This document shows positions 392-61,947 of a stretch of 64,000 nucleotides of DNA, one piece after another. Below the pieces are notes generated by a model. It saw nothing but the letters and a program-made list of their open reading frames with translations, did not search any database and had not been told where the DNA came from. This DNA comes from Candidatus Gygaella obscura (GTDB lineage: Bacteria > Omnitrophota > Gorgyraeia > Gygaellales > Gygaellaceae), in the NCBI GenBank assembly GCA_030765485.1, contig JAVCCR010000012.1:43679-107678 (forward strand), written 5' to 3'. A program made the translations under genes and the position numbers. The stretch's first letter is position 1; the number at the start of each line of letters is the position of its first letter.

Positions 392-1060
392 TTACTTATG
401 AGTGGATCTAAACACAAGGGTAAACTCTCCCCTGGGTTTAGTGTTTTGGAAGTGTTCGATTAGAGAAGAAGCGTCCTTTCTTAAAACCTCTTCGAACTTT
501 TTGGTCATTTCTCTGCAACATACGAGATGAATATCCCCGAGAGACTCTTTTATATTTTTCAGAATCCTTAAGATACGATGACAGGATTCATATACCACTA
601 CTGTATGACCGGTTTGATAAAACTGGATTAATTTCTTTTTCTGCGGCCCTTCTTTTTTAGGCAGGAACCCCGCAAAAAGAATCTTATCTGTCGGCAGACC
701 CGATAAAACCGCAGCCGTTACAAAGGCGCAGGCGCCTGGTAAAACAGTAACCTCAATTCCTTCTTTAACTGCAAGACTAACCAAATGAATTCCAGGATCG
801 CTTATTCCAGGAGTCCCTGCTTCGCTAAGAAGCGCTATGTCTTTATTTTCTTTTAGTGCCTTAATTAAAACCGCTTCTTTCTTTAAACGATTGTGCTGAA
901 AATAGCTTGTTGTGGGTTTATCAATTCCATAAGCATCGAGCAGAATCCTAGACTTTCGCGTATCTTCACAGGCAATCAAATCACAATTTTTAAGACACTC
1001 CACGGCCCTAAAAGTAAAGTCTTTAAGATTTCCTATGGGGGTTGCTATTATATAAAGCAT
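392..1060 (-). CDS. rsmI: 16S rRNA (cytidine1402-2'-O)-methyltransferase RsmI (tetrapyrrole-methylase fold)
   Basis: N-terminus MLYIIATPIGNLKDFTFRAVECL...DLIACEDTR is the characteristic RsmI signature. Length 222 aa. Confidence 0.85.
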   Translation of the reverse strand: MLYIIATPIGNLKDFTFRAVECLKNCDLIACEDTRKSRILLDAYGIDKPTTSYFQHNRLKKEAVLIKALKENKDIALLSEAGTPGISDPGIHLVSLAVKEGIEVTVLPGACAFVTAAVLSGLPTDKILFAGFLPKKEGPQKKKLIQFYQTGHTVVVYESCHRILRILKNIKESLGDIHLVCCREMTKKFEEVLRKDASSLIEHFQNTKPRGEFTLVFRSTHK

Positions 1061-2940: not shown

Positions 2941-4047
2941 TTAAACGCTCTCAAACAAAATGCAAGCAGCATCTTCGGCAAAAAAATCTCCTGTTTGAGC
3001 ATAAATCTTAGCTCGGCACCCCCCGCAAATACGGCTAAACTTACAATTTAAACATTTGCCCTTAAGGTTATTCCTGTTACGCAACGCCTTAAGATGCTTA
3101 TTATTTTTATAGATATCGACTATACTATCTTTTTTAATATTCAAATCGGGCAAAACAAAAGGGAAAAAAGGGCAAGGCCTAACGGATCCGTCAGAATTTA
3201 CATAAACGCTATTACCATCCAAGACGCCGCAGCCGCCTTTAGTATAAGAAATTAATCTTTTCAATAACCCTGGTTTTTCCTTCTTAAAAGAATAAACATT
3301 ATAATAAATTTTATCTATTGTAAAGAATTTAATCCTATCTCTATAAATATGGGCCAGATCATAGATATTTTCAATAATCTTTAGTTTTTCTTGTGGAGAA
3401 AATGATTGAGCAGAATTCATTTTCCTTTCCCTCCCGCAGGGAATAGCAAAATCCGCAGTCCAAAAACTCACCTTCTTCTCAATCAGTAGCCTTAAGGTAT
3501 TTTCTATATCCTGTGTATTGTTTTTATGAAGCGTGATCTTGACCAAAACTGGTAACCCTGTTGCTACTGCACAATCTATCCCTTTTAAGATTTTCTCAAA
3601 ACTACCATTTCCTCTAGTGAAAGAATTTATTGCCTCATTTGATCCATCTAAAGAAATAGAAAACAAACTCAAACCATTATCTTTAAGCTCCCCGGCCATA
3701 TTACTATCAAGTAAGGTTGCATTGGTTAAAATATTGGTCATCATACCGTTTTCTGCACCAAACTTAACGACTTCCCTTATCTCTTTACGCAACAATGGCT
3801 CTCCGCCAATAATATTAAATATCGTAACCCCTAATTTCTTAAAGTCCTTAATCAGAACTTTTATCTGCTCCATACTTAATTCATTTTCTAAAGAAACACC
3901 CGCATCGCTTGAACAATATACACAATCCATATTGCACTTTTGCGTAGCTTCTAAGAATGCAACCATGGGAGCTTTCTTAAATTTAAGCTTGTGTCTTACT
4001 ATCAAGAACGGTATTTTAAGCTGTATTTTCTTTCTGCTTTGGCTCAT
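2941..4047 (-). CDS. Radical SAM enzyme with C-terminal SPASM-like Cys-rich domain (NirJ/AhbC/AhbD-like or peptide-maturase-like), paralog 1
   Basis: CNMDCVYC (CX3CX2C) near N-terminus. C-terminal CPFFPF...CLNCKFSRICGGCRAKIYAQTGDF...ACILF auxiliary-cluster motif. A possible later start at MVAFLEA (3966) would remove the overlap with the upstream gene. Confidence 0.8.
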   Translation of the reverse strand: MSQSRKKIQLKIPFLIVRHKLKFKKAPMVAFLEATQKCNMDCVYCSSDAGVSLENELSMEQIKVLIKDFKKLGVTIFNIIGGEPLLRKEIREVVKFGAENGMMTNILTNATLLDSNMAGELKDNGLSLFSISLDGSNEAINSFTRGNGSFEKILKGIDCAVATGLPVLVKITLHKNNTQDIENTLRLLIEKKVSFWTADFAIPCGRERKMNSAQSFSPQEKLKIIENIYDLAHIYRDRIKFFTIDKIYYNVYSFKKEKPGLLKRLISYTKGGCGVLDGNSVYVNSDGSVRPCPFFPFVLPDLNIKKDSIVDIYKNNKHLKALRNRNNLKGKCLNCKFSRICGGCRAKIYAQTGDFFAEDAACILFESV

Positions 4048-4843
4048 TTATATCAAGAATAGTTTTTAAAACTCTTACCGGCAGGAGGCGTAATAAATAT
4101 TTATAGAAAGGGGCACTGGCGCTCATACAAAATTCACAACTCCCAGAACCATTACAAAGATTATTGTACAAAAAGAATTTGTGTCTAAAGGGAACTTTGG
4201 TTTTAAGCATAATTTTGCCGTGTGCTTCGCATAACCTACAAAACGCTTCGCCTTCACTTTTATAACCTAAATTACTAAAAACCCCGTAAACAGGACAATT
4301 TAAAAATATAAGCCTGATCTCTGCACCTTTTTTGTTTAACTTTATGAAGTGGTCACCAAGCATATAACGAATACTGACTTTGCTTTTTGTTCCCTTGCCC
4401 AGGCTCGACTCTGTAACCTCTTTCAGACGTTGAGCAAAATCTTCTTTTATCTCCTCAGCTGCCTGCTTTAAAGCCTTAACTCCTAAACATCCGGAAATTG
4501 CCCTAAATAAAAGTGCGGTCCTAACTGTTTCCCTATGTTCAGACAACCTGCAACAAAGACACTGTTTTGCTTCTTCGTCTAGATCAATACCAGTTAAAAT
4601 ATCATCTGCGTCCTTTTTAAAAATATCACTCAATCTATCAAGCTCTTTTTCATCAACTGCAAGCTCTCTTTCTAAAGTCTTAAATCTCTCTAAAAATAAA
4701 TCTTGGGCGATTTTCATCTTGACAGCCATCTTATCCCAATAAGACATGTAGAAAGACAACTGCTTTTTCTGTCTTAAGACATAGAACCACTTGTGACATT
4801 GAAAATAGTCAAAGTATGTATTGACCGCTTTATTTCTTTCCAT
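4016..4843 (-). CDS. Cys-rich hypothetical protein (275 aa) inside the nitrogenase-like/radical-SAM operon; possible Fe-S or Zn-binding accessory protein
   Basis: Motifs QCLCCRLSEH, CRLCEAHG, CNGSGSCEFC. Co-directional and overlapping its neighbours. No recognisable family from sequence alone. Confidence 0.45.
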   Translation of the reverse strand: MERNKAVNTYFDYFQCHKWFYVLRQKKQLSFYMSYWDKMAVKMKIAQDLFLERFKTLERELAVDEKELDRLSDIFKKDADDILTGIDLDEEAKQCLCCRLSEHRETVRTALLFRAISGCLGVKALKQAAEEIKEDFAQRLKEVTESSLGKGTKSKVSIRYMLGDHFIKLNKKGAEIRLIFLNCPVYGVFSNLGYKSEGEAFCRLCEAHGKIMLKTKVPFRHKFFLYNNLCNGSGSCEFCMSASAPFYKYLLRLLPVRVLKTILDINEPKQKENTA

Positions 4844-4846
4844 ATG

Positions 4847-5089
4847 TTAAAAAAGATATACGTAAATAAGATTGACAGCAGTATAAAAAAATACCCAAAA
4901 CCAAACACCGGCTTTATAAATTTCTTTCGCATATAAAGCTTTAATAAAAGCAAATACTGCGATTAAAATAACAATCGGCACCATAAAATAAAACTTCCTG
5001 CTAGTCCATAGATGGCAGAAATCATGCCATAATAAAACAGCCATAAAAAGCACAATCTTTAATAACCATATTTTCACTCTTGCTAACAT
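4847..5089 (-). CDS. Small hydrophobic membrane protein (80 aa, 2-3 predicted TM helices)
   Basis: Highly hydrophobic translation (LLKIVLFMAVLLW..., IVILIAVFAFIKAL...). Overlaps next gene by 7 nt, so the two could be a single frameshifted membrane protein. Confidence 0.4.
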   Translation of the reverse strand: MLARVKIWLLKIVLFMAVLLWHDFCHLWTSRKFYFMVPIVILIAVFAFIKALYAKEIYKAGVWFWVFFYTAVNLIYVYLF

Positions 5090-5352
5090 AATTTTATCTG
5101 CATACCAAACCAGAAGTGTGCGGTTTTAAAAAGTAAAATAGTCGCCGTTGCAGAACAAAATGCCCAAAAGGTAATTTCAAAAAACTTTTTTGCTAAGAAT
5201 AACTTGTAGAAAAAAAACACCAATAATAGAATATGCGCTATTGCTACCCAGTGCAAATTATTTAAAATCCAATAATAACTAAAAACATAAAAAATTAATA
5301 TCGAAACTAAAATAATAGTCTTTTTTAATAGTAACTTACTTTTTTCTTTCAT
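5083..5352 (-). CDS. Small hydrophobic membrane protein (89 aa)
   Basis: Hydrophobic segments (IILVSILIFYVFSYYWIL, VAIAHILLLVFFFYKLF). 4-nt overlap with the upstream radical SAM gene suggests translational coupling. Confidence 0.4.
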   Translation of the reverse strand: MKEKSKLLLKKTIILVSILIFYVFSYYWILNNLHWVAIAHILLLVFFFYKLFLAKKFFEITFWAFCSATATILLFKTAHFWFGMQIKLC

Positions 5353-6461
5353 CGTTTTTTAAAAAATGGGCAATTTTGTTCTTGTGCAAAGAAATCTCCT
5401 GTATTAATAAAAATCCTGGCGCGGCAACCACCGCAGCAAAAAAGAAACTTACAATCTCTACACTCACCTTTTAAGGCATGCTTATTGCGCAAACTGAGAA
5501 GCTGCTCGTTATTACAAAAAACTTCCCCTATATTATGTGTTTTAACATTAACACCTCTTAAGCTATCGGGAAAATATGCGCAAGGCTTAATTGTACCGTC
5601 ACTATTAATATAAAGCGTGAGCGCGTTAAGGATGCCACAGCCTTTTCTTATCCAAATAAATATTTTTCTAAAAATCCCAGCCTTCTTGCTCCATAACAGA
5701 TAAGCAAAATAAAGCTGGGGATCATGGATATATATTTTTATCCTACGTTTAAACTTATTTTCTATTATATAGATTTTTTCCATTAATGCCAGAATTTCAT
5801 TTTTTTCTTTTATTGCATGAGATGGATAAATAACTTTTGCCTGCCCACAGGGCACTAAAAAAATCGGGGACCACTGCTTTATATTTTCTCTTATTAACAA
5901 TTCAATTATTTCCTCGAGATTGTCCTTGTTCTGCCTTGTAACGGTTGTTGTAACGCAGACAGAAACCTTAGCACTTACAGCAGCTCTTAGACCCTGTATA
6001 GTTTTCTCAAAAGCACCTTCCCCCCGGAAATAATCATGTTGCTTGGCCGTAGCACCATCTAAAGAAATATGAATATAATCCAAGCCACAATTTTTTAATC
6101 TATAGGCTTTGTCTTTTGTCAAAAGCGTAGCGTTTGTCGCTAAGGCAGTAATAAAACCTAAACCGACAGCGTCTTTTACTACATTATATATATCGTTTCT
6201 TAAAAGTGGTTCGCCGCCAGTTAAAACCAAAAAGATGCTACCAATGCTCCTTAAACCCTTCAGCGTCTTTACAATCTCTTGTCTATTTAGTTCTAAAAAA
6301 GAATTAGAACTGTTTTTCGCAAAGCATTGAATACAATCCAAATTGCACTTTTTCGTAAGTTGCAAACCAACTTTAACAGGGCCTTTTTTAAAACCAAAGA
6401 CCTTCTTAAGCATAAAAATACCGATCTTAAAATGTATTTTATTAATACTTACTTCGGACAT
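5349..6461 (-). CDS. Radical SAM enzyme with SPASM-like C-terminal domain, paralog 2. ORF extends to 6524; start at 6461 (MSEV...) avoids overlap with the upstream gene.
   Basis: CNLDCIQC CX3CX2C motif. C-terminal CRDCKFLFCCGGCRARIFINTGDFFAQEQNCPFF. Confidence 0.8.
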   Translation of the reverse strand: MSEVSINKIHFKIGIFMLKKVFGFKKGPVKVGLQLTKKCNLDCIQCFAKNSSNSFLELNRQEIVKTLKGLRSIGSIFLVLTGGEPLLRNDIYNVVKDAVGLGFITALATNATLLTKDKAYRLKNCGLDYIHISLDGATAKQHDYFRGEGAFEKTIQGLRAAVSAKVSVCVTTTVTRQNKDNLEEIIELLIRENIKQWSPIFLVPCGQAKVIYPSHAIKEKNEILALMEKIYIIENKFKRRIKIYIHDPQLYFAYLLWSKKAGIFRKIFIWIRKGCGILNALTLYINSDGTIKPCAYFPDSLRGVNVKTHNIGEVFCNNEQLLSLRNKHALKGECRDCKFLFCCGGCRARIFINTGDFFAQEQNCPFFKKR

Positions 6462-6465
6462 AGGT

Positions 6466-7980
6466 TTATTTTGCCAACTCAATAAATATTTTTTTGATGT
6501 GCTGATTATTTTTGGAATGAGCATCTTTTTCTACAACCTGTTTGATAATATTAATGTCTACCTGGGTACTATTTTTCTTAGCCAGCTCTTCGCATTTAAA
6601 CTTAATTTTTTTTATTGCAACGGTCCTTACAAAATAAGGGATCGTTGCTGCAATCTTACCAAGCGCCTCCTGTGCCAGACTGTCCCAGTGAATAGTAAAA
6701 ACATTTAGTTCCTCAACAGAGGCATCTTTAGCGTCAATAAACAGATTGGAAATTATTTGATTTTCTATCTGTTGAACCAGATTGGCTGAGCCCCGAAAAC
6801 CCATATAAGGCGAGCTCTGGGTAGAAATATACTTCGGCATGGGAATATCCAAATAAACAAAATTTACAATTCCGAGCTCTTTTGCAATAGCAAAATCATA
6901 AAAACTGCCTAAAATAGCTATAGGAGATTTCTCCAAAAAAGTTTTTTTGATTTCTTCCGGACTGGGAGAAAACAAAACACAACCAATCTCTTTTTTTAGT
7001 AGCCGGTGCACATCTTTATCTGCGGTTAATAAAACACTCGTCTCAATCCCCAGCTCGTTTTTAAGAAACCTGCTGATCCCCACAGCATAAGTACTATGAT
7101 TCTGTGCGCTAATTGCTATTTTTGAATCAAAAGCGATAGAAAATACAAAATTGGAATTGACAAGCCTTATACCTTTTTCTAATTCTTCTTGTAGGTATTG
7201 TTTTATCTCTAAGGAAAAATATTCCGCTATTTTTTCAAGCCATAAAGCTGTGTTGCTGAAACCGATTGGCACAGGGTTATCGATATAAGGAATTTTAAAC
7301 AATTTTTTCATCCCTTTGGCAAGTTCTACGCCGCAATCAAAAGGATAAACGCACAAATTCAAACAAGCCCCTGTTGCATTTGCTATCTGATCAATAGTAC
7401 AATCCGCACTTAAAACTGTATTGATTTCAACGCCTATCTGCAAAAGAATACGCCTAAGCTCCTCTATGTCGCTACGCCAATTAAACATACAGCGGGTGGG
7501 ACCGATAATATTTACTGAATGCTTTTTTTTCAAAGCAGCTGGTTTCATCAAATCAATCAAACTAGAAAAAACATAGTCTCTGCCAGCATTTAAGTTCTTG
7601 TCCATATCAGCATTGAGACTTTTTATATTTTTAAAACCGGATTCTTTGATAATTCCCTTTATGTCTTCTTTGGTCATATTGCTAGGCAGCGAGTCCACAA
7701 CAAATAAAAACCGGTAAGACCTGTTCTTTAAAGACGTTAACGCGGCCTTAAGCTGCTCTTCTCCGGAGTAGATTAAGTCTCCTAAAGAAAGATTACTGGT
7801 ATAAAACGCTGCCTCTATCTCATCAAAACTCAACATTGTTTGCATTTGAGAAATATAACAACCTCCTGGAGAATGAAAAACAACAGCAGCATCTTTTATC
7901 CCAGCAAGAGCCCACAGGATGCCCTCTAAAAAAGTTGGTCTATGTATTTTATTCAATTGAAGCTCGTCAAGCTTTAACAT
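6466..7980 (-). CDS. Nitrogenase component-1-like oxidoreductase subunit (NifK/NifN/BchB-like), 504 aa
   Basis: N-terminal VVFHSPGGCY resembles the HGPxGC motif of NifDK/NifEN/BchNB-family proteins. Size matches BchB/ChlB-type subunits. Overlaps its partner gene by 14 nt. Confidence 0.7.
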   Translation of the reverse strand: MLKLDELQLNKIHRPTFLEGILWALAGIKDAAVVFHSPGGCYISQMQTMLSFDEIEAAFYTSNLSLGDLIYSGEEQLKAALTSLKNRSYRFLFVVDSLPSNMTKEDIKGIIKESGFKNIKSLNADMDKNLNAGRDYVFSSLIDLMKPAALKKKHSVNIIGPTRCMFNWRSDIEELRRILLQIGVEINTVLSADCTIDQIANATGACLNLCVYPFDCGVELAKGMKKLFKIPYIDNPVPIGFSNTALWLEKIAEYFSLEIKQYLQEELEKGIRLVNSNFVFSIAFDSKIAISAQNHSTYAVGISRFLKNELGIETSVLLTADKDVHRLLKKEIGCVLFSPSPEEIKKTFLEKSPIAILGSFYDFAIAKELGIVNFVYLDIPMPKYISTQSSPYMGFRGSANLVQQIENQIISNLFIDAKDASVEELNVFTIHWDSLAQEALGKIAATIPYFVRTVAIKKIKFKCEELAKKNSTQVDINIIKQVVEKDAHSKNNQHIKKIFIELAK

Positions 7981-9211
7981 ATCTCAGCTGTAGTTTTTGC
8001 CAATAACTATAGGTCTTATTCTCTAAAACGCTTAAAAAGTTTTCCACAAAATCCACTGCGTAATCATAGCCGTATTCCCCTGAATAAAACATACTGTAAA
8101 AAATCGGCACACCCAAATAGCCCTTCCTGTTAAATTGTATTTCCGTAAAAACCGCATTTATTTTATTTTCCTTTATGACTTGTTCAATCTCCTCGGGTTG
8201 CTCATCCAAAACATTAACCTTATAATTCTGTGTCAAATTAAACATTTCTTTTTCTGCGTATTCGTTTTTTAAATTTGATATAAAAAAAACATTTGCGCCA
8301 AACTCTGACAAAATCTTTGCAATGGAAAACTCATTACCTGGACCGTACAAACATAAAACGTTTGGTTTCCTCTTATGCATTTTTATTTTCAACAATTTTA
8401 CTTTTGCTAAAACTCTTTTTTCTTCCTGTCTAGCTATATTAATAAGCTCCGGGCAACGAATAACGTCTGCTGCGCGTAAAAAAAACCTGCTAGTTGCTCC
8501 TATCCCCGCAGGTATTTCGCTATAATGACACTTTATATCTAGTTGATCCTGAAATGTTCTCGCGGTAGAAAAAGCAACAGGGCTTAAAATAAATGCATTT
8601 TCAAGCGAAGAGATATTTTCCATCTGCTGAAATGTTTTTGCAGGAAAACTAATAAAATCAACCCCGGCCTTATCAAAAACCATCTCTATGGCAGCCAGCG
8701 AATCCGTATCCATTCCGGACCTCCCGATTATACCCACTGCTTTACTTTTTTCCTTTCCAGTCTTAAATTGCTTTACCAGAGCTTGCCATGCTAAATCATT
8801 ACCTTTACTCATGCCAAAAGCAATATTACACCCAGTATCACAATAAGACAACCCACAGGAAATCTTAACTTCTGCTCTTTTTAAAGCACCTTTAACATCG
8901 TCATTATTTAACTGTGTAGAACAAGTATTGAGAACAACTATTGCCTTAGGCTGAAACTTTTGGAAACTTTGTATAATTGTTCTTTCCAGTTTGCTTGCAG
9001 AACCAAAAATAAAATCCTTTGATTCAAGCTGTGTCGAAATCACCATAGGAAAACCTTTACTGTTACATGAAAATGAACCAATCTGCATACAATAAGAGCA
9101 GCTTTTTGTTGAATGCAATACCACCACAACATCCTCAATGCGATTTAAGGTGGCTAAAGCCTGTAACGTTGAACAGGTGTGTTCTAAATTGATTATCGGT
9201 CTTTTTTTCAA
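7967..9211 (-). CDS. Nitrogenase component-1-like oxidoreductase subunit (NifD/NifE/BchN-like), 414 aa
   Basis: HTCSTLQ, VVVLHSTKSCSYC and LNTCSTQ give three Cys at ~13/38/97, a spacing similar to the 3-Cys cluster-ligand pattern of BchN/ChlN and NifE. Too short for FeMoco ligands. Confidence 0.7.
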   Translation of the reverse strand: MKKRPIINLEHTCSTLQALATLNRIEDVVVVLHSTKSCSYCMQIGSFSCNSKGFPMVISTQLESKDFIFGSASKLERTIIQSFQKFQPKAIVVLNTCSTQLNNDDVKGALKRAEVKISCGLSYCDTGCNIAFGMSKGNDLAWQALVKQFKTGKEKSKAVGIIGRSGMDTDSLAAIEMVFDKAGVDFISFPAKTFQQMENISSLENAFILSPVAFSTARTFQDQLDIKCHYSEIPAGIGATSRFFLRAADVIRCPELINIARQEEKRVLAKVKLLKIKMHKRKPNVLCLYGPGNEFSIAKILSEFGANVFFISNLKNEYAEKEMFNLTQNYKVNVLDEQPEEIEQVIKENKINAVFTEIQFNRKGYLGVPIFYSMFYSGEYGYDYAVDFVENFLSVLENKTYSYWQKLQLRYVKA

Positions 9212-9217
9212 TGTCTG

Positions 9218-10009
9218 CTAAAATTGTTCCCAGTTTATCTCTTGAGGAATCACCATTTCTGGACTATCGAGAAGTTTTTCTGTTATTTCTTTAATACTAT
9301 TGTATGTATCGCATGCGGTGTCAATCGCAATGTCTTCATTAAGCTCGCTAAAAGGAACAATTCCCAAAAGCTGTGACCCTAAGGCTTTAACAAACCCTTC
9401 AACTTTTTCTGTTTTTATCTTACCGCTACGGGAATTACCAATTATCCCTGCAAGCTTAGCTCCAGATCTTTGAGAAAATTTAATTATTGCCCTAGAAATA
9501 TTAGCTGCGGCATAAAGAGACGCTGCCTCAGAACTTGTAACAATATATATCTCTTGGGCAAAACCCTCCCTAATCGGCAAAGAAAAACCTCCACATACAA
9601 CATCGCCTAAAACATCATAAATAGTAAAATCTATTTTTTTCTTCTGCTGGATTTTAACCTGCTTTATAAACTCTATTGCCTCTGCTACACCTTTACCTGC
9701 ACAACCAACCCCTGGCTCTGGACCACCGGACTCTATACAATAAATACTCCCCTTAATACTTGTTTTTTTATCCACCGTAAAAACAAACTCCTCTATATCT
9801 ACATCCTCTTTATTAAAATTGCGCTGTTTTAACCAATCCAATACCGAGAGAATTCTCTTGCGCTTCAAAAGCAAAGCGCAGCTATCTTGTTTCGGGTCAC
9901 AACCAACCTGCAAAACATTAAAACCTCTTTCAGCAAGACAGTAAGAAATATGGCTGGCGATAAAACTTTTGCCAATCCCGCCCTTCCCATAAATCGCTAA
10001 TTCTCTCAT
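9218..10009 (-). CDS. NifH/BchL/CfbC-family ATP-dependent reductase (Fe-protein-like), probable start at MRELAIYGKGGIGKS
   Basis: Walker A GKGGIGKS, switch motif CDPKQDS, and the Fe-protein [4Fe-4S] ligand motifs GCAGKG and VVCGGFSLP. Confidence 0.88.
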   Translation of the reverse strand: MRELAIYGKGGIGKSFIASHISYCLAERGFNVLQVGCDPKQDSCALLLKRKRILSVLDWLKQRNFNKEDVDIEEFVFTVDKKTSIKGSIYCIESGGPEPGVGCAGKGVAEAIEFIKQVKIQQKKKIDFTIYDVLGDVVCGGFSLPIREGFAQEIYIVTSSEAASLYAAANISRAIIKFSQRSGAKLAGIIGNSRSGKIKTEKVEGFVKALGSQLLGIVPFSELNEDIAIDTACDTYNSIKEITEKLLDSPEMVIPQEINWEQF

Positions 10010-11046
10010 TTTGCCCTCGTAGTATAAACAGCTGGCAGATAACTGCAAACCGGATCCTGCGCAAGAAAATCTCCATATTTAGCAAAGGCCTTTGCCCTGC
10101 ACCCTCCGCAACAAACCTTATACTCGCAAACACCACATTTTCCTTTTAATTTTGAAGGATCTCTTAGTAGCTTTAAATCCTTATTCTCCTGCCAAATACT
10201 TTTTAAATCCTGATCTTCAATATTTGCCAAAGAATAATCAAAATACCCGCAGGGATAAACTTCTCCTTTTGCAGAAACAAAAATTATGCTTTTACCAGCA
10301 AGACATCCGCTCGCTTTGTCTAAATGCTGTCCATTAAAATCTTTGATTCTTGTAAAAAACGGGGCGCATGTTGGTCGGATATCAAAAACATTTTTATTCT
10401 GCAAATGGGCAATCTGTAACAATAGCTCTTCGCACTCCTCCGGACCAAGTATCTGGTCTGGCGAAATTTCTTTTGCACAACCGACAGGAACCAAAACAAA
10501 AACATGTAGCGCTCTGGCGCCTAGCTTTTTACTAAACTCCACAATTTCATCCAGCTTGCCGGCATTTTGTTTTGTTGCTGCAGTATTAATCTGAAAAGGT
10601 ATATTCAATTTTTTTAAAAAATTTATTCCTTTTAGAGCTGCCTGAAAAGCACCTTTGCTGCCCCGAAAGCTATCGTGAGTATTTTCATCTATACTGTCAA
10701 TGCTTACGCTTACAATATCAATCCCACTTTTCTTGATTTGACTTGATTTAAACTCATTTATCAAAACAGCATTAGTAGCAAGCCCTACTTTTAACTTTCT
10801 ATCCTTTATATATTCTGCTATCTGAAAAATATCTTCTCTTAAAAGAGGCTCTCCGCCACTTAAAACAATAAAAGGTCTGGCAAATGAAAGGACCTGATCT
10901 ATTAAAATTTTAATCTGCGCAAAAGATAGATCTTTATGATCTTTACCAATAGAAGATTTATTTTGTCTGCAGTGCTTACAGTGAAGGTTGCAAGCCAAGG
11001 TAGTTTCTAAAAAAAGAATTTTTAATTCTGGGGTTATTAGAGGCAT
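10006..11046 (-). CDS. Radical SAM enzyme with SPASM-like C-terminal domain, paralog 3 (first gene of operon)
   Basis: CNLHCKHC (identical pattern to the NirJ/Ahb CNLxCxHC box). C-terminal CGVCEYKVCCGGCRAKAFAKYGDFLAQDPVCSY. Confidence 0.8.
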   Translation of the reverse strand: MPLITPELKILFLETTLACNLHCKHCRQNKSSIGKDHKDLSFAQIKILIDQVLSFARPFIVLSGGEPLLREDIFQIAEYIKDRKLKVGLATNAVLINEFKSSQIKKSGIDIVSVSIDSIDENTHDSFRGSKGAFQAALKGINFLKKLNIPFQINTAATKQNAGKLDEIVEFSKKLGARALHVFVLVPVGCAKEISPDQILGPEECEELLLQIAHLQNKNVFDIRPTCAPFFTRIKDFNGQHLDKASGCLAGKSIIFVSAKGEVYPCGYFDYSLANIEDQDLKSIWQENKDLKLLRDPSKLKGKCGVCEYKVCCGGCRAKAFAKYGDFLAQDPVCSYLPAVYTTRAK

Positions 11047-11145: not shown

Positions 11146-11220
11146 ATGACCCCAGCGGGATTTGAACCCGCGCCGAGAGCTTGAAAAGCTCTTGTCCTGA
11201 CCAGGCTAGACGATGGGGTC
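11146..11220 (-). tRNA. tRNA-Glu (anticodon UUC)
   Basis: Reverse complement folds as a cloverleaf: 7-bp acceptor GACCCCA/TGGGGTC, anticodon loop CTTTTCAAG, T-loop GGTTCAAAT. Confidence 0.8.
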
Positions 11221-16481: not shown

Positions 16482-17573
16482 TTAGGTAAGTCTCATGGGT
16501 AAAACCACATAAACATAACCGTTACTTCTTATCACAGCTGGTTTTTCCGGTTCTGTAAGTTCAATTTCAACTTCAACGTCGGTAAGATTTTTCAAAACAT
16601 CCACTAGGTAAACCGGATTAAACCCGATAATTAAATCTTTGCTTGCGGTTATGGTTTTAAGTTCTTCCCAAGATTCTCCTACGTCTGGTGTGGTTTTAGA
16701 AACAACTAATTTGTTTTTTGATAAAGTTAATTTTACCGCTTGAAAATCTGGGGTGTTTAAAAGCGCTGCTCTTTTTAAGGCTGATAAAAATTCTTCTCGG
16801 TCTATTTTTATTTTCCCATCGTTCTCCCTGGGAATAACTTGATTATAGTCGGGAAATTCTCCCTCGATTAATCTTGTCACGATGGTTTTATTTTTAAATT
16901 CAAATAGGGCCTGGTTGCTACCAAAAACAATAGACACATCTCCTTCATCTGTAAGATTTTTGTTAATTTCCATAATTGCTTTTAGGGGGACAACACTGTT
17001 GATTTCTTTAGCTATGTTTGTTTCTGTAGATTTAGTATAAACCGCTAACCTTCTTCCGTCGGTGGCTACGGTCGTGATTTTATTATTTTTTATGTTGAAT
17101 AAAATTCCACTTAAAACAAACCTAGATTCATCGTGTGACACAGCAAAACTTGTTAGGTTTATCATTTGTTTTAATTCTGCTTGTTCAATTTTGAAAACTT
17201 GTTTATCTTTTAATTCTGGTAATTTAGGAAATTCCTCTTTTGGGAGTCCTGAAAGTTTAAATTGGCAATTGTCTGTTTCTATAAGCGTTGTGTTGTTTTT
17301 TCTGGTGGTTATTCTTATTTCATTATCTGGAAGTTCTCTAATTATCTCAATAAACCTTCTCGCTGGTAAAGTAATTGCCCCCTGCTCGTTTATATCCACA
17401 GGTAATAAACAGGTAATCCCTATATCTAAGTCTGTACTTGTAAATCTTAAATCGTTATTTTTTGTTTCAATTAATATGTTAGAAAGTATTGGTAGTGTTG
17501 CTTTTGGAGAAATAATATTTTGGACAACCTGTAATTGATTAAGAAGTTCTTTTTTATTTGTTTTTATTTTCAT
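16482..17573 (-). CDS. dnaN: DNA polymerase III beta sliding clamp
   Basis: 363 aa. N-terminus MKIKTNKKELLNQLQVVQNIISPKATLPILSNILIE typical of DnaN. Confidence 0.95.
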   Translation of the reverse strand: MKIKTNKKELLNQLQVVQNIISPKATLPILSNILIETKNNDLRFTSTDLDIGITCLLPVDINEQGAITLPARRFIEIIRELPDNEIRITTRKNNTTLIETDNCQFKLSGLPKEEFPKLPELKDKQVFKIEQAELKQMINLTSFAVSHDESRFVLSGILFNIKNNKITTVATDGRRLAVYTKSTETNIAKEINSVVPLKAIMEINKNLTDEGDVSIVFGSNQALFEFKNKTIVTRLIEGEFPDYNQVIPRENDGKIKIDREEFLSALKRAALLNTPDFQAVKLTLSKNKLVVSKTTPDVGESWEELKTITASKDLIIGFNPVYLVDVLKNLTDVEVEIELTEPEKPAVIRSNGYVYVVLPMRLT

Positions 17574-17697
17574 TTTTTATGGACCTCTCTATACTAATAT
17601 AATTAAAACTTAAATAATTAGAAGTAGTTAGTAGTCTGTGTTAATTTTTGTGGATATCTTCAAAAACAATATTAAAATTCATCAAAACAGCTGTTGA

Positions 17698-19062
17698 TTA
17701 GTTTTTAATATCCTGCACAATGCTGTTAATTTGCTTTTTCAATACACTATTTTTTGCCATTTCCCCCTTGATTTTTTTATAAGCGTATAAAACCGTTGTG
17801 TGATCTTTTCCTCCAAAGAGCTGTCCTATTTCAGGTAAAGAATAACTAGTTAACTCGCGCGACAAAAACATTGCTACCTGTCTAGGTAAGACAATTGTTT
17901 TCTGGCGCTTATTTTTTTTAAGGTCTGACAAAAGGATATTAAAATAACGCGCCACTTTTTCCTGTATTAAGGGAACCCCCACCTGTTTATTATCTTCTTT
18001 TATTAAATCTTTTAGAGCTTCTTTTGCTAAACTTAATGAAATTTCTTTTTCTTCAAGCATAGAATAAGCTATAATTCGGATTAGCGCCCCTTCCAACTCC
18101 CTAACATTATTTGTGATAGTTTGAGCGATAAATTCCAAAACATCATCAGGGACCTTGGTTGTTTCCCGCTCTAATTTTTTCTTTAAAATTGCTACCCTAA
18201 GCTCAAAATCTGGTGGTTGGATATCGGTAATTAAACCCCACCCAAAGCGAGAAATCAGTCTTTCTTCTAAATTGGATATTTCTTTTGGAGAGCGGTCAGA
18301 CGTTATGATGATTTGTTTATGATTATCATATAGAGTATTAAAAGTGTGAAAAAATTCTTCTTGGGTGGATTCTTTACCTGCGATAAACTGGATGTCGTCT
18401 ATTAAAAGGATATCCGAATTTCTATATTTTTGTCTAAAGCTGGCCGTAGATCTATTGACAATGGCGTCAATAAGATCGTTTGTAAAAGATTCACTTGATA
18501 CATAACAGATATTGCACTTATTTTCACTTTTTTTTATCGCAAAGTGGCATATAGCTTGTAAAAGATGAGTTTTCCCTAGCCCCACCCCGCCATAAATAAA
18601 TAAAGGATTATATGTTTTTGCTGGAGATTCAGCCACGGCCTGGCTGGCGGCGAAGGCAAAACGGTTTGATCCCCCAACGACAAAACTTTCAAATCTATAC
18701 CGGGCGTTTAATTTTATTTGCTTTATGTTTTCTTTTGGTTGCTTCACCTGGTATTTTTCCAAATGAATAATCTCAGGCATTACTAAGAGTTTTGAATTGA
18801 TGCAGAATTCAACAGTGTGCGCCAATGGGTAAAATTCTAAAATAGTTTCTTCAATTAATTTCCTATAGTGATCGTCCACCCATTCTTTAAAGAATGCGTC
18901 TGGTACTTCAATTATCACCCTCTCTGGGCTTTCGTCCGCCTTAAGGCGCATTTGGCTAAACCAGGCGTTAAACATGGATTCACCGATTAAGGTTCTAATT
19001 TTTTCTTTAGCTTTTTCCCAGGCATTCTGTTTTTCAACAGGGGCCTTATTCGTGTTTTCCAC
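17698..19062 (-). CDS. dnaA: Chromosomal replication initiator DnaA
   Basis: AAA+ Walker A GGVGLGKTHLL, DnaA domain IV C-terminus. 454 aa. Confidence 0.97.
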   Translation of the reverse strand: MENTNKAPVEKQNAWEKAKEKIRTLIGESMFNAWFSQMRLKADESPERVIIEVPDAFFKEWVDDHYRKLIEETILEFYPLAHTVEFCINSKLLVMPEIIHLEKYQVKQPKENIKQIKLNARYRFESFVVGGSNRFAFAASQAVAESPAKTYNPLFIYGGVGLGKTHLLQAICHFAIKKSENKCNICYVSSESFTNDLIDAIVNRSTASFRQKYRNSDILLIDDIQFIAGKESTQEEFFHTFNTLYDNHKQIIITSDRSPKEISNLEERLISRFGWGLITDIQPPDFELRVAILKKKLERETTKVPDDVLEFIAQTITNNVRELEGALIRIIAYSMLEEKEISLSLAKEALKDLIKEDNKQVGVPLIQEKVARYFNILLSDLKKNKRQKTIVLPRQVAMFLSRELTSYSLPEIGQLFGGKDHTTVLYAYKKIKGEMAKNSVLKKQINSIVQDIKN

Positions 19063-35374: not shown

Positions 35375-35568
35375 TCATATGTTATACTTGAAATTGGAAG
35401 TTATGTTGTTATCCCTGCTGTGAGCGCCGGGTAATTTATTGTGTGTTGAACCAACAGCACAAGCACGGGAGCCTGACTTCATGTTGCTTGAGGGCAATGT
35501 GAGAAGGCACCCACCTAAAGGATAGGGTTCAAAGCAATTTATCTGACGCCACGCGCGGGGTTTTTTTA
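35375..35568 (+). ncRNA. ssrS: Candidate 6S RNA (ssrS) immediately upstream of the 5-formyl-THF cyclo-ligase gene, ending in a T-rich terminator
   Basis: ~400-nt non-coding gap between pheT and ygfA. The conserved ssrS-ygfA linkage is established in many bacteria. GC-rich, structured-looking stretch (CCCTGCTGTGAGCGCCGGG...GGCACCCACC...) ending in GCCACGCGCGGGGTTTTTTT. Secondary structure not verified. Confidence 0.3.
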
Positions 35569-42392: not shown

Positions 42393-42579
42393 CGAGCTGT
42401 GTAAAGGATGTGGTTTATGCGTGTTGTATTGTCCTAAAGGGCTTATCCGTCGCAGCAATAAACTCAACAAAAAAGGTTACAGGTATGCTGAGTTTAAAAA
42501 ACAAAAAGGCATAGATTGTGTGGGGTGCATGTTCTGTGCTATTATGTGCCCGGAATCAGCAATAGAGATTTTTAAATAA
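42370..42579 (+). CDS. 2-oxoacid:ferredoxin oxidoreductase delta subunit (2x[4Fe-4S] ferredoxin)
   Basis: CKGCGLCVLYCP and CVGCMFCAIMCP. Confidence 0.8.
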   Translation: MAKIKINNELCKGCGLCVLYCPKGLIRRSNKLNKKGYRYAEFKKQKGIDCVGCMFCAIMCPESAIEIFK

Positions 42580-43631
42580 TGAAAACACAAAAAAAGCTTT
42601 CATCAGGTAATGAAGCAGTTGTGCAGGCAGCTATTTATGCAGAGTGTAAATTTTATGCAGGTTACCCTATAACTCCGCAGAATGAGATTCCTGCTTTGAT
42701 GTCTAAGCGTATTGGTTTAATTGGCGGAGTTTTTATTCAGGCAGAGTCAGAGTTGGCGGCAATCAATATGGTCTTTGGCGCTTCTGCTGCAGGCGCAAGG
42801 GCAATGACCACTTCATCCAGCCCGGGGATAAGTCTTAAGCAGGAAGGCATATCTTATATTGCTGGGGCGCAGCTTCCGGCTGTAATAGTAAATATGGTAA
42901 GAGGCGGTCCAGGTTTGGGTAATATTGCACCGTCTCAATCGGATTATTTTCAGGCAACAAAAGGCGGTGGACATGGTGATTATCATTTGATTGTTCTATC
43001 CCCGGCAAGCATACAGGAAACATTTCATTTAACTGTTGAGGCATTTGATCTAGCAGATAAATATAGAAATCCGGTTATGATTTTAGGGGATGGTCTTTTG
43101 GCTCAGATGATCGAGCAGATTATTTTGCCTAAACAAAAAATAAAAATACCTGTACGGAAGAAAACTTGGGCTTTGACTGGTGCAAAAAACCGCGATCCTA
43201 ATATCATCAGGACGTTATTTTTAAAAGAGGGTGCTTTAGAAGAACATAATTTAGTCCTGCAGGAAAAGTATAAATTGATTGGAAAAAATGAAATCAGATT
43301 TGAAGAATATTTAACTAAGGATGCAGATATATTGCTTGTTGCCTATGGCACAATGGCGCGTATTGTAAAAGGGGCAGTAGATTCCTTAAGGGCCCAAGGC
43401 ATAAAAGCAGGTTTATTCAGGCCGATTTCGCTTTGGCCTTTTCCTTATGCGGTTTTAAAAACATTATCAAAGAATAAAGAAAAACTTTTGGTTGTGGAGA
43501 TGTCTTACGGCCAGATGGTAGAAGACGTAAGACTTTCAGTTGAGGGCAGCGTAAAGGTTGATTTTTTTGGTCGCGCCGGCGGAGGAGTTCCTAAGGAAGA
43601 GGCGATCATTAAAAAGGTAAAGGCGTTATGA
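42579..43631 (+). CDS. 2-oxoacid (pyruvate/2-oxoglutarate):ferredoxin oxidoreductase alpha subunit
   Basis: 350 aa. Transketolase-Pyr-like N-domain. Genes overlap by 1-4 nt in delta-alpha-beta-gamma order. Confidence 0.88.
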   Translation: MKTQKKLSSGNEAVVQAAIYAECKFYAGYPITPQNEIPALMSKRIGLIGGVFIQAESELAAINMVFGASAAGARAMTTSSSPGISLKQEGISYIAGAQLPAVIVNMVRGGPGLGNIAPSQSDYFQATKGGGHGDYHLIVLSPASIQETFHLTVEAFDLADKYRNPVMILGDGLLAQMIEQIILPKQKIKIPVRKKTWALTGAKNRDPNIIRTLFLKEGALEEHNLVLQEKYKLIGKNEIRFEEYLTKDADILLVAYGTMARIVKGAVDSLRAQGIKAGLFRPISLWPFPYAVLKTLSKNKEKLLVVEMSYGQMVEDVRLSVEGSVKVDFFGRAGGGVPKEEAIIKKVKAL

Positions 43632-44359
43632 AAAAAATATTTTCTTTTCCCAAAGCACTCAAAAAAGTTCCTAATCATTATTGTCCTGGTTGCGGACACG
43701 GTCTTGTGCACCGTTTGGTTGCTGAGGTGATTGATGAACTTAATATAAGAGAAAAGATTGTGGCAGTTGCTCCTGTAGGGTGTGCGGTTATAGCATATGA
43801 TTATTGGGATTTTGATTGCAGCGAGGCAGCACACGGAAGGGCTTTAGCAGTTGCAACAGGTATAAAACGCGTTCAGCCGGATAAAATAGTTTTTACTTAC
43901 CAAGGTGACGGTGATTTAGCAGCGATTGGTATAGCAGAGACTCTTTATGCAGCCAATCGGGGAGAGAATCTCACAACGATTTTTATCAATAATGCAGTTT
44001 ACGGTATGACCGGAGGCCAGATGGCGCCAACGACTGTGTTAAAGCAAAAAACTACAACTACTCCTTTAGGACGTGGTAATAATAGTGAAGGTTCTCCGTT
44101 AAAGGTCTCGGAAATTCTAGCAAGCCTTGATGGGGTTTGTTTTGTGGAGCGGAATGCGGTTTGTTCTCCAGCGCAGGTCTTAAGGACGAAAAAAGCCATA
44201 AAGAAGGCTTTCGAAAATCAGCTTTCAGGTAAAGGGTTTTCTTTTGTCGAGGTTTTGTCCATGTGCCCGATATGTTGGGGTAAAAGCGCAGAGGATTCGG
44301 TAAAGTGGGTAGAAGAAGAAATGGTGAAAAGTTTTCCTTTAGGCAGGATAAAAGGATGA
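43628..44359 (+). CDS. 2-oxoacid:ferredoxin oxidoreductase beta subunit (TPP-binding)
   Basis: CPGCGHG...YQGDGD...GMTGGQ TPP/[4Fe-4S]-proximal motifs. Confidence 0.88.
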   Translation: MKKIFSFPKALKKVPNHYCPGCGHGLVHRLVAEVIDELNIREKIVAVAPVGCAVIAYDYWDFDCSEAAHGRALAVATGIKRVQPDKIVFTYQGDGDLAAIGIAETLYAANRGENLTTIFINNAVYGMTGGQMAPTTVLKQKTTTTPLGRGNNSEGSPLKVSEILASLDGVCFVERNAVCSPAQVLRTKKAIKKAFENQLSGKGFSFVEVLSMCPICWGKSAEDSVKWVEEEMVKSFPLGRIKG

Positions 44360-44892
44360 GTGTAAAAAAAATAATCATAGCCGGTTTTGGCGGCCAAGGC
44401 ATAATTTTTACAGGCAGGGTAATTAGTACTGCCGCACTTATTGAAAACAAACACGTGAGCATGATCCCCTGTTATGGCGCGGAGATGCGCGGAGGTACGG
44501 CTTATTGTGTTGTTAGTATATCAGATAGCCAGATTAACTCTCTATATGCTGATTATGTTGATTACATGATGATTATGAATGAGCCGTCTTTGATTAGATT
44601 TATTAAAAGAGCTGCAAAAAAGGCAGTGGTTGTAGCTAACAGTTCTTTGATAAAAAATAAAATTAAAAGCAAAAATGCTAAAATTGTCTATAAACCGTTT
44701 AGCGAGCTTGCTGCCATTCAGGGTAGGGTAAAAGTAGCGAACATGTTTGCCTTGGGAGTATTAATAAAATGTACTGGTATTGTGAAAGTTAAAAGCGTTT
44801 TAAATGCTTTGCAGGAGCTTAGCAAGAACGAAGAAAGTTTTAATTTAAATAGGTTATCTTTGAATAAAGGAATAAAGTTAATAAAGGCTTAA
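44356..44892 (+). CDS. 2-oxoacid:ferredoxin oxidoreductase gamma subunit (start probably MSVKK at 44356)
   Basis: IIIAGFGGQGIIFTG gamma-subunit Rossmann-like motif. Confidence 0.8.
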   Translation: MSVKKIIIAGFGGQGIIFTGRVISTAALIENKHVSMIPCYGAEMRGGTAYCVVSISDSQINSLYADYVDYMMIMNEPSLIRFIKRAAKKAVVVANSSLIKNKIKSKNAKIVYKPFSELAAIQGRVKVANMFALGVLIKCTGIVKVKSVLNALQELSKNEESFNLNRLSLNKGIKLIKA

Positions 44893-52506: not shown

Positions 52507-52581
52507 GGCCCCATCGTCTAGCTAGGTCTAGGACGGGTGGTTCTCAGCCATCAAACACCGGTTCAAATCCGGTTGGGGCTA
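52507..52581 (+). tRNA. tRNA-Glu (CUC)
   Basis: Acceptor GGCCCCA/TGGGGCT, Glu-type D-arm CGTCTAGCTAGGTCTAGGACG, anticodon stem GGTGG/CCATC with loop TTCTCAG, T-loop GGTTCAAATCC. Confidence 0.75.
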
Positions 52582-52599
52582 CCAGATTTTACTTACTAC

Positions 52600-57377: not shown

Positions 57378-57397
57378 TTATTTAAAAATTAATCTCT

Positions 57398-61702: not shown

Positions 61703-61901
61703 TTATTTTTTGCTGTTAAAAATGACATAACTACTTGAAAAGGCTAAGAAAACGGTTTCTGCAGACAGGGCATTCTTCCTTGACAGGGCCTATTGTATAT
61801 GTTATATTTTACATGCAGACAGTAATGGTAACGAAAAGGCAATTCTCAAATATTTTTGAGATGCGCAAAGCCACGGGTTAAGAGAGTTTATCTTTAAATT
61901 G

Positions 61902-61947
61902 CCGGGCTACCGAAAACCAGTGGAGAGTTTCGCAGCCCGGTTTTTTT
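61902..61947 (+). terminator. Nested hairpin plus T7 run (terminator or attenuator) just upstream of the first Flp pilin gene
   Basis: CCGGGCT...AGCCCGG outer stem with inner CGAAA...TTTCG stem, then TTTTTTT. Confidence 0.35.

Follow-up and report, generated by a model that had tools for sequence, protein, structure and literature searches.

A nine-gene operon of Candidatus Gygaella obscura joins a nitrogenase-like reductase to three AhbD/NirJ-type radical SAM enzymes and is a candidate tetrapyrrole-tailoring pathway

A stretch of 64 kb from the genome of Candidatus Gygaella obscura, a member of the Omnitrophota (contig JAVCCR010000012.1, positions 43,679 to 107,678; hereafter, the window), contains a compact operon of nine genes (window positions 2941-11046, minus strand). 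We propose, with a probability of about 0.55, that this operon encodes a tetrapyrrole-tailoring pathway organized round an ATP-dependent nitrogenase-like reductase, in which reduction of the ring would be combined with tailoring of the side chains. In the order of transcription the products are rSAM-A, NflH, NflD, NflK, rSAM-B, two small membrane proteins, CysX and rSAM-C, where rSAM denotes a radical S-adenosylmethionine (SAM) enzyme, NflH, NflD and NflK are the reductase subunits and CysX is a cysteine-rich protein. The nine tightly packed open reading frames (ORFs) are found exactly where an earlier note on this DNA had placed them and, as it had said, are co-directional and overlapping or less than 10 nt apart: after refinement of the starts against an orthologous cluster, the junctions in transcription order are -4, +6, -14, +4, -4, -7, +3 and -32 nt, so that no gap exceeds 6 nt. 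Public annotation describes the Candidatus Gygaella obscura proteins (MDP8259798-805) only as 'radical SAM protein', 'nitrogenase component 1' or 'hypothetical protein'. The case for the pathway is built on gene content, the pattern of cluster ligands, fold, clade structure and the genomic associations of relatives.

The core of the operon consists of NflH, a NifH-like Fe-protein ATPase of 263 aa (9218..10009, minus strand as all nine genes), NflD, a component-1 alpha-like subunit of 414 aa (7967..9211), and NflK, a component-1 beta-like subunit of 504 aa (6466..7980). NflH matches PF00142 (260.7 bits), whereas NflD and NflK match PF00148 (157 and 199 bits, respectively), NflK with an additional weak match to PF08369. 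Together with the sequence motifs, the PF00142 and two PF00148 domains assign the three proteins to the two-component reductases of the nitrogenase superfamily (NFL). NflH has the P-loop GKGGIGKS, the CDPKQDS motif and both cluster-Cys motifs, GCAGKG and VVCGGF. It is ~41% identical to NifH and, in comparison with PDB chains, scores 204 bits against NifH and 126 bits against BchL. Outside its own family, its closest homologs are the H proteins of genuine minimal nitrogenase clusters (P0069, P0073). All its NCBIfam scores are under the respective cutoffs (bits/cutoff: nifH, 257.6/394; CfbC, 243/402; BchX, 175/331; BchL, 173/345). The best model for NflD is NifE with 77 bits (cutoff 505), and the best models for NflK are BchB (137/490) and BchZ (105/529); other scores are 53/420 for BchN, 18.5/425 for BchY and 44/268 for CfbD. 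Because every NCBIfam score is far under its cutoff, NflH, NflD and NflK fall in no characterised equivalog family. The reductase is, on these comparisons, a mosaic in which NflH is near NifH, NflD is best matched by NifE and NflK alone is BchB/BchZ-like. The 'L/N/B-like' triad of the earlier note is thus borne out for NflK and does not hold for NflH and NflD.

In NflD, Cys13, Cys38 and Cys97 occupy the positions of the three cluster ligands known from the alpha subunits NifD, NifE and BchN (in NifD, Cys62, Cys88 and Cys154, Azotobacter numbering) and are invariant in 12 family members. NflK has one conserved cluster Cys, Cys41 of the HSPGGC motif, which aligns with a Cys of BchZ (DGPVGC), a Cys of NifK and the Asp of BchB (HAPQGD). 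At the two remaining NifK P-cluster positions NflK has residues other than Cys, so that the complex retains four of the six P-cluster Cys, three in NflD and one in NflK. Because NflD contributes three Cys and NflK the single Cys41, each D/K interface is predicted to bind one [4Fe-4S] cluster by 3+1 Cys ligation, the pattern of chlorophyllide a oxidoreductase (COR), a prediction that excludes both a P-cluster and the iron-molybdenum cofactor (FeMoco). In an alignment with Rhizobium NifD, neither NflD nor any of the 10 family members included has a counterpart of the FeMoco ligands Cys275 and His442. The resemblance of NflH to NifH, with all nucleotide-binding and cluster motifs in place, and of NflD to NifE could be taken to indicate a divergent functional nitrogenase or a NifEN-like scaffold. 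However, the FeMoco Cys/His ligands and two of the three beta-subunit P-cluster Cys are missing, the nifH and NifE scores given above are far under the Nif equivalog cutoffs, and the ORFs of the 64-kb window that were read or scanned encode no NifB, NifV or NifEN (nifB, nifE/N or nifV, in the terms in which their absence was first noticed). Because of the missing ligands, the nitrogenase reading is effectively refuted, and the original view of the complex as a nitrogenase-like reductase that is not a nitrogenase stands, with four of six P-cluster Cys and no FeMoco ligands.

NflK also resembles the subunits of tetrapyrrole reductases. Its C-terminus aligns with the BchB/BchZ domain 'WDxxA...PxFVR', a motif absent from NifK and NifN; the match of this region to PF08369 (PCP_red) is weak (E 2e-4; 21.6 bits, under the cutoff of 32.5). 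The AlphaFold model of NflK has a pLDDT of 89.8, and in a Foldseek search of the PDB its top 14 matches are all subunit B of dark-operative protochlorophyllide oxidoreductase (DPOR), listed before the nitrogenase beta subunits, the best being 2ynm_D (E 7e-24, TM 0.74, over 519 columns). COR and DPOR are two-component ATP-dependent reductases with an inter-subunit [4Fe-4S] cluster held by three alpha-subunit Cys and one beta-subunit ligand, and the system described here would share this plan. The beta ligand is a Cys in NflK as it is in BchZ of COR, whereas in BchB of DPOR it is an Asp. A PCP_red-type C-terminal domain in the beta-like subunit is a further likeness, and DPOR subunit B is the closest solved fold. 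On the other hand, identities to the COR and DPOR subunits are just 13-25%, the scores stay below the BchL/N/B and BchX/Y/Z cutoffs, NflH and NflD stand closer to NifH and NifE than to BchL/BchX and BchN/BchY, and here the partners are AhbD-like radical SAM enzymes and there are no photosynthesis genes. CfbCD, another nitrogenase-like reductase of anaerobes, is the Ni-sirohydrochlorin a,c-diamide reductive cyclase of F430 biosynthesis and thus acts on a siroheme-branch tetrapyrrole; the 243 bits of NflH against CfbC and the CfbA-like small chelatases encoded beside some H/D/K relatives (see below) recall this system. In contrast to CfbD, which is a single catalytic subunit, D and K are separate proteins here, with 44 and 18 bits against the CfbD model (cutoff 268).

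The three radical SAM/SPASM proteins, rSAM-A (10006..11046, 346 aa), rSAM-B (5349..6461, 370 aa) and rSAM-C (2941..4047, 368 aa), all contain PF04055 and PF13186, which completes the set of Pfam domains expected at the outset. Their radical SAM boxes are CNLHCKHC, CNLDCIQC and CNMDCVYC, respectively, and the C-terminal motif is CGGCRA(K/R); these, like all the other motifs quoted in the first description of the operon (GKGGIGKS, CDPKQDS, GCAGKG, VVCGGF, HSPGGC and the Cys13/38/97 triplet), are present in the translations. All three proteins score best against AhbD, followed by NirJ2, TIGR04053, NirJ1 and AhbC. For rSAM-A the scores are 324.7 bits for AhbD (TIGR04545, cutoff 500), 295.9 for NirJ2 and 288.5 for TIGR04053; for rSAM-B, 197.8 for AhbD, 190.8 for TIGR04053 and 177.8 for NirJ2; and for rSAM-C, 204.9 for AhbD, 202.2 for TIGR04053, 165.4 for NirJ2, 163.6 for NirJ1 and 154.6 for AhbC, the values for rSAM-B and rSAM-C all being under cutoff. 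The SPASM region of rSAM-A has the spacing C227-x20-C248-x17-C266-x37-C304-x2-C307-x5-C313-x2-C316-x17-C334, an exact fit to the full eight-Cys SPASM motif of AhbD, which has been published for the Methanosarcina barkeri enzyme (PMC10452713). rSAM-B and rSAM-C have a SPASM region with seven Cys, which fit seven of the eight AhbD positions with x18/x39 spacings. Of the three, rSAM-A is the most AhbD/NirJ2-like, and rSAM-B and rSAM-C are a paralogous pair. The CX3CX2C motif and the SPASM domain are thus common to the operon's enzymes and to AhbD, AhbC and NirJ, which serve siroheme-dependent heme and heme d1 synthesis, and the initial assignment of the latter as AhbD/NirJ-type rather than NifB-like agrees with the best-scoring model and with the exact spacing in rSAM-A. 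However, with 155-325 bits against cutoffs of 500-650 none of the three is an equivalog of the known enzymes, no ahbA/B or nir genes occur nearby, and the combination of three paralogs with a nitrogenase-like reductase in one operon sets them apart.

SPASM enzymes are typically peptide maturases, and the nearest solved structures to rSAM-A by sequence are PqqE, SkfB and anSME. The operon, with its two small ORFs, might accordingly be read as a system for a ribosomally synthesized and post-translationally modified peptide (RiPP) or a peptide-derived cofactor, in which the SPASM enzymes mature a ribosomal peptide; this had been one of the alternatives first considered, for which a conserved adjacent precursor gene would have spoken. 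Yet the only candidates for such a gene are the two membrane-protein ORFs, which are very hydrophobic, unlike precursors, and absent from the more distant relative L004 described below. Intergenic gaps of at most 6 nt offer no space for a further small ORF, Pfam detects no RiPP recognition, protease or export genes in the operon, and the peptide-maturase models of NCBIfam score 2-3 times lower than the AhbD and NirJ models for all three enzymes. We know of no RiPP system with a nitrogenase-like reductase. We regard a peptide product as highly improbable and discarded this reading on account of the missing precursor and the ranking of the profile hidden Markov models (HMMs).

Three proteins remain. 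CysX (4016..4843, 275 aa) has no Pfam or NCBIfam family, and a profile search of the PDB came back empty. Its invariant signature among orthologs, NCPxxGVF...FCxLCEAHG followed by a further Cys, includes four invariant Cys and one His. In a Pfam search to E 10, the ortholog from a second Omnitrophota genome (L001) gave a weak match to ATC_hydrolase (PF14196, E 0.0018, under cutoff), and the single-sequence AlphaFold model of CysX is unusable (pLDDT 34.5). Small membrane protein 1 (5083..5352, 89 aa) is hydrophobic over residues 5-75 and small membrane protein 2 (4847..5089, 80 aa) has three hydrophobic segments; neither belongs to a Pfam or NCBIfam family or has a recognisable transporter domain in Pfam, and no transporter is encoded in the operon.

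Conservation of the neighbourhood in related genomes, suggested at the outset as a check, was observed. In L001, the Omnitrophota metagenome-assembled genome (MAG) M55B134 (GCA_018400015.1), all nine genes occur in the same order between gyrA/tRNA-Glu and glmS/rsmI, with 47-73% amino-acid identity. Because the nine-gene order is repeated in this second Omnitrophota MAG, the arrangement is not due to chance. The core of the operon is also present on a sediment metagenome contig (L004/L005), again in the same order: an rSAM-A-like gene, H, D, K, one rSAM-C/B-like gene and CysX, at 30-47% identity. Orthologs of rSAM-A have 63% identity in L001 and 44% in L004; for rSAM-B the identity in L001 is 63%, and for rSAM-C 66-68%, the sole downstream radical SAM protein of L004 being closest to rSAM-C (46-47%). 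CysX has orthologs in the same position in L001 (51-52%) and L004 (30%, E 9e-42). Small membrane protein 1 is 47% identical to its L001 counterpart, with size and position kept, and small membrane protein 2 is 55% identical to an 81-aa L001 ortholog; both are absent from L004. About 0.7 kb downstream of CysX, L004 has a gene for a BchH/CobN-type chelatase, which runs off the end of the contig. When metagenomes were scanned with the CysX alignment, no contig other than L004/L005 came up, and the form of the cluster with radical SAM and CysX genes is known from three sources only.

To a wider family of H/D/K proteins belong relatives collected by a genome scan with the K alignment and a profile search with the D alignment. 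At 32-48% identity they comprise at least 120 clusters (at 90% identity) above 600 bits. The source MAGs carry the labels delta proteobacterium, Thermodesulfobacteriota/Desulfobacterota or 'Proteobacteria' (Lac Pavin); one single-cell genome of Spirochaetota contributes as well. Their genes are arranged as MarR-H-H-D-K, or as MarR-D-K with a second D-K pair. The MarR-H-H-D-K cassettes thus have two NifH paralogs, and their K protein, of ~585 aa, has a duplicated C-terminal domain. No radical SAM/SPASM or CysX gene is found near H/D/K in the loci of these Desulfobacterota-like relatives, and CysX is specific to the radical-SAM-linked form of the cluster. What these loci do contain are genes that point to tetrapyrroles. 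In L002 (4728-13863) an equivalog of BchH (1064.8 bits, cutoff 829) is encoded directly upstream of MarR-H-H-D-K; CbiX/CfbA/HemH-like chelatases are encoded near H/D/K in L009, L010 and L021; a BchE-like B12 radical SAM protein is encoded immediately upstream of D-K in L018 and L019; and a flavoprotein of the geranylgeranyl-reductase family is a neighbour in L009 and L010. FeoB is also among the neighbours in this group (L002, L009, L010, L011, L018, L019, L021). The Desulfobacterota-like loci look like a toolkit in the style of (bacterio)chlorophyll synthesis, and the stretches seen contain no photosynthesis genes.

The family is well separated from other NFL proteins. When 1.84 billion representatives were searched exhaustively with NflK, only four clusters fell below E 1e-40, after which identity drops to ~27%; the family thus has sharp limits. 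With Roseobacter BchL/N/B/X/Y/Z and Rhizobium NifH/D/K/E/N as references, neighbour-joining trees give the family a clade of its own for H, D and K (bootstrap 91, 67 and 89, respectively). NflK groups with BchZ/BchB, and NflH is much nearer to true NifH than to BchL. Within the family, the first branch is the Omnitrophota pair and the second L004, an order which suggests that the radical-SAM-linked arrangement is ancestral in the H/D/K family. The next-nearest K homologs (~27% identity, 509 aa) are part of a separate H-D-K cluster (L026, 7913-12068; L027, 248-3559), which adjoins genes for a CcsA-type cytochrome c assembly protein and a small protein with a Shikimate_DH domain and is another orphan nitrogenase-like group with a heme-related neighbour. 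P0134, P0135 and P0139, also among the next-closest H and K homologs, come from other NFL groups, in which the SPASM/CysX signature is missing.

Reduction and tailoring of a porphyrinoid is the best reading of the operon because NflK is DPOR/COR-like, the radical SAM enzymes are AhbD-like and relatives have tetrapyrrole neighbours. A tetrapyrrole role, the first guess from the gene content, is accordingly the one best supported by the C-terminal domain and DPOR-B fold of NflK and by the BchH, CbiX/CfbA and BchE-like neighbours of relatives. Several observations weigh against it. The window has no gene for a tetrapyrrole precursor or a chelatase, and the chelatase neighbours belong to relatives at 32-47% identity and not to the Omnitrophota loci. 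Substrate specificity cannot be transferred from the models because the HMM scores are far under the equivalog cutoffs, and for NflH and NflD the likeness is greater to NifH and NifE than to BchL and BchN. AhbD-like SPASM enzymes also use non-tetrapyrrole substrates; published work describes archaeal radical SAM synthases of tetraether lipids, naming AhbD as well as SPASM. The tetrapyrrole model leaves the roles of CysX and the membrane proteins unexplained, the genomes of Omnitrophota are reduced in metabolism, and neither this clade nor Group VI, discussed below, has an experimentally characterised member (PMC13474568).

The same enzymology could also serve the salvage or remodelling of a tetrapyrrole scavenged from a host or prey, such as heme, a siroheme-derived compound or one of the F430 type. 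This would fit the absence of hem, cysG, ahbAB and chelatase genes from the 64-kb window, an absence that covers these 64 kb only. It would also fit the constrained metabolism of Omnitrophota and the habits of the cultured relative, which lyses methanogens and presumably draws cofactors from them (2026 Omnitrophota preprint), and the lack of precursor pathways in many Group VI genomes, which may scavenge (Méheust et al. 2020, bioRxiv 10.1101/765248). Biosynthesis is, however, the better fit for the H-type chelatase gene of L004, and for uptake the operon provides no transporter, its small membrane proteins having no transporter domain. We consider salvage unlikely, though less so than any of the explanations that dispense with a tetrapyrrole.

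One of these is a reductase for another small molecule, for example one cleaving C-S or C-X bonds in the manner of methylthio-alkane reductase (MarBHDK, MAR) and isethionate reductase (IsrBHDK, ISR), which form Group IV-C/F, with the radical SAM proteins as maturation or accessory catalysts. The proximity of NflH to true Fe proteins, with its next-best homologs in genuine minimal nitrogenase clusters, and the NifE-like score of NflD are what such an enzyme might show, and the characterised Group IV systems likewise have H/D/K paralogs encoded with a radical SAM protein (PMC13474568). That partner, however, is NifB-like (PMC13474568), whereas here there are three enzymes of the SPASM/AhbD type, with no NifB model among their top matches. 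Most Group IV enzymes retain all P-cluster Cys, and MAR has nitrogenase-type complex clusters with these Cys kept (PMC13474568), in contrast to the four cluster Cys of the present system. The BchB/BchZ C-terminal domain and DPOR-B fold of NflK, the absence of sulfur-metabolism neighbours and the chelatases of relatives also argue against C-S/C-X chemistry, which we judge distinctly improbable.

The chemistry might otherwise be directed at membrane lipids or isoprenoids, the SPASM enzymes forming or modifying C-C bonds of lipid chains like the archaeal tetraether-lipid synthases, the reductase acting on double bonds and the membrane proteins serving as anchors. The two small membrane proteins are conserved in both Omnitrophota operons, a geranylgeranyl-reductase-family flavoprotein lies beside some relatives, and radical SAM/SPASM enzymes that modify lipids are known and have been discussed together with AhbD. 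Against this, the best HMM matches are tetrapyrrole radical SAM enzymes, no lipid-synthase model is among the top 25, the chelatase, BchH and BchE-like neighbours of relatives point to tetrapyrroles, and the membrane proteins are absent from L004. To our knowledge, no nitrogenase-like enzyme acts on lipids. This possibility seems very unlikely, more so than the C-S/C-X reductase and less so than the peptide system.

Under the tetrapyrrole reading, the pathway might operate as follows. The NflH dimer, with one [4Fe-4S] cluster and driven by MgATP, would hand low-potential electrons, probably derived from reduced ferredoxin, to an NflD/NflK heterotetramer. Each D/K interface would hold one [4Fe-4S] cluster bound by three NflD Cys and one NflK Cys, as in BchYZ of COR, and NflDK would reduce a C=C bond of the bound porphyrinoid, as do DPOR, COR and CfbCD. 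rSAM-A, rSAM-B and rSAM-C would act oxidatively on side chains of the same macrocycle, for example by decarboxylation or removal of propionate or acetate groups. CysX may be a dedicated accessory protein, perhaps for metal or Fe-S binding or for substrate handling, and the two small membrane proteins could be lineage-specific additions. We infer the substrate class, the order of the steps, the product and the source of the substrate, made de novo or scavenged.

A combination of this kind has been anticipated. The earlier note knew of no cluster coupling such a reductase with radical SAM enzymes; this does not hold, since besides the radical SAM partners of MAR and ISR, the Group VI NifH/D/K paralogs were published in 2020, from groundwater Elusimicrobia, 14 Myxococcales and 2 Gracilibacteria genomes (Méheust et al. 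2020, bioRxiv 10.1101/765248; ISME J 14:2907). As many as 13 radical SAM genes, a part of which code for B12-binding or HemN_C domains, flank these paralogs, which were predicted to reduce a tetrapyrrole to a new cofactor (bioRxiv 10.1101/765248); a 2026 review lists no characterised member (PMC13474568). Compared by descriptions, neither group has FeMoco ligands or NifB, both keep no more than four of the six P-cluster Cys and have radical SAM genes as neighbours, and in both tetrapyrrole cofactor chemistry was predicted from context. The Group VI proposal is an independent prediction of the same function for analogous clusters. There are also differences. The host here belongs to Omnitrophota and the relatives are Desulfobacterota-like, Spirochaetota or unplaced MAGs; no Elusimicrobia or Myxococcales name is among the matches listed for the operon proteins, and none of the assembly accessions in Table S2 of Méheust et al. 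equals an assembly met in this analysis. Group VI has variable numbers of B12-binding/HemN_C radical SAM proteins, in contrast to the three AhbD/NirJ-type SPASM enzymes and CysX found here, and its NifH is sister to BchL/BchX (bioRxiv 10.1101/765248), whereas NflH is nearer to true NifH. Host phyla, SPASM/AhbD and CysX partners and a NifH-near Fe protein, again judged from descriptions, hint at a clade separate from Group VI.

Beyond Group VI, we found no literature on the combination of a nitrogenase-like reductase with AhbD/NirJ/SPASM enzymes or on the MarR-H-H-D-K/BchH family, and the operon is a genuine orphan system, conceptually anticipated by Group VI. A bolder and decidedly tentative proposal, which we hold to be more doubtful than the tailoring pathway itself, is that the operon and the wider H/D/K clade make a tetrapyrrole cofactor or pigment other than heme, siroheme, heme d1, F430, cobalamin and (bacterio)chlorophyll. 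That clade includes the cassettes beside BchH, BchE-like and CfbA/CbiX-like genes in non-phototrophic, Desulfobacterota-like MAGs from sediment. The product might then be a ring-reduced, side-chain-decarboxylated metalloporphyrinoid made anaerobically by the nitrogenase-like reductase together with AhbD-type radical SAM enzymes, and the clade a new functional group of the nitrogenase superfamily apart from Groups IV, V and VI. Known nitrogenase-like functions are N2 fixation, DPOR, COR, CfbCD, MAR and ISR, and the uncharacterised groups are the main open problem of the field (PMC13474568). Here, a compact and fully syntenic nine-gene operon has predicted parts clear enough for direct testing: a COR-type cluster site, a DPOR-B-like substrate subunit, three AhbD-type radical SAM enzymes and a Cys-rich partner. 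It is tied to a larger family encoded beside genes for Mg-chelatase-H, BchE-like and small chelatase proteins in dark, anoxic sediments. A new tetrapyrrole as the product would add a branch to the pathway map of the 'pigments of life', and some of the orphan nitrogenase-like proteins would gain a function; a scavenged substrate would make the operon relevant to the cofactor supply of Omnitrophota with reduced genomes.

Two gene starts were revised. The longest ORF for NflH begins at TTG 10048 (276 aa), and the most likely start is ATG 10009 (263 aa), which gives an ATGA overlap with rSAM-A and is the same in the public record and in L001. For rSAM-B the ORF reaches 6524, and the most likely start is ATG 6461 (370 aa), the L001 ortholog also having 370 aa. 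Scans for promoters and terminators gave counts equal to the shuffled expectation.

The operon lies between gyrB-gyrA-tRNA-Glu on one side and glmS-rsmI on the other, ~7 kb from dnaA and adjoining the GC-skew switch. dnaA and dnaN are at 16482-19062, and the sign of the GC skew changes at ~19-20 kb, marking the replication origin. The operon is co-oriented with replication and occupies a core-genome position, not an island, its GC content of 34-37% being similar to that of the surroundings. The tRNA-Glu(UUC) gene (11147-11220, minus strand) is 100 nt upstream of the operon; in L001 it is at 6754-6829. Glutamyl-tRNA is the C5-pathway precursor of all tetrapyrroles, but the adjacency is probably a coincidence, though the linkage is conserved in both Omnitrophota genomes. 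After glmS, the product of 392-1060 (minus strand) has the PF00590 fold and was considered as a precorrin methylase; it is instead the 16S rRNA methyltransferase RsmI (247 bits, cutoff 168).

Elsewhere in the window, three genes on the plus strand (42579-44892; POR_N/PFOR_II, TPP_enzyme_C and POR gamma) encode a 2-oxoacid:ferredoxin oxidoreductase, a plausible source of reduced ferredoxin for NflH. A B12-binding radical SAM protein of 468 aa (52537-53943, plus strand) corresponds to no equivalog model, its weak best matches being TIGR04013, HpnJ, an MCR glutamine C-methyltransferase model and BchE. Two RNA elements on the plus strand were detected at Rfam gathering scores, a 6S RNA (35409-35565) and a c-di-GMP-I riboswitch (61828-61914), the latter located 3' of a 502-aa ORF (60194-61702) that has no Pfam family. 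Finally, the translations of 54919-59557 (plus strand) look like a secretion module of the Tad/type IV pilus type, with a CpaB-like protein, a secretin-like protein and a 719-aa ATPase that has an N-terminal ParA/MinD-like domain.

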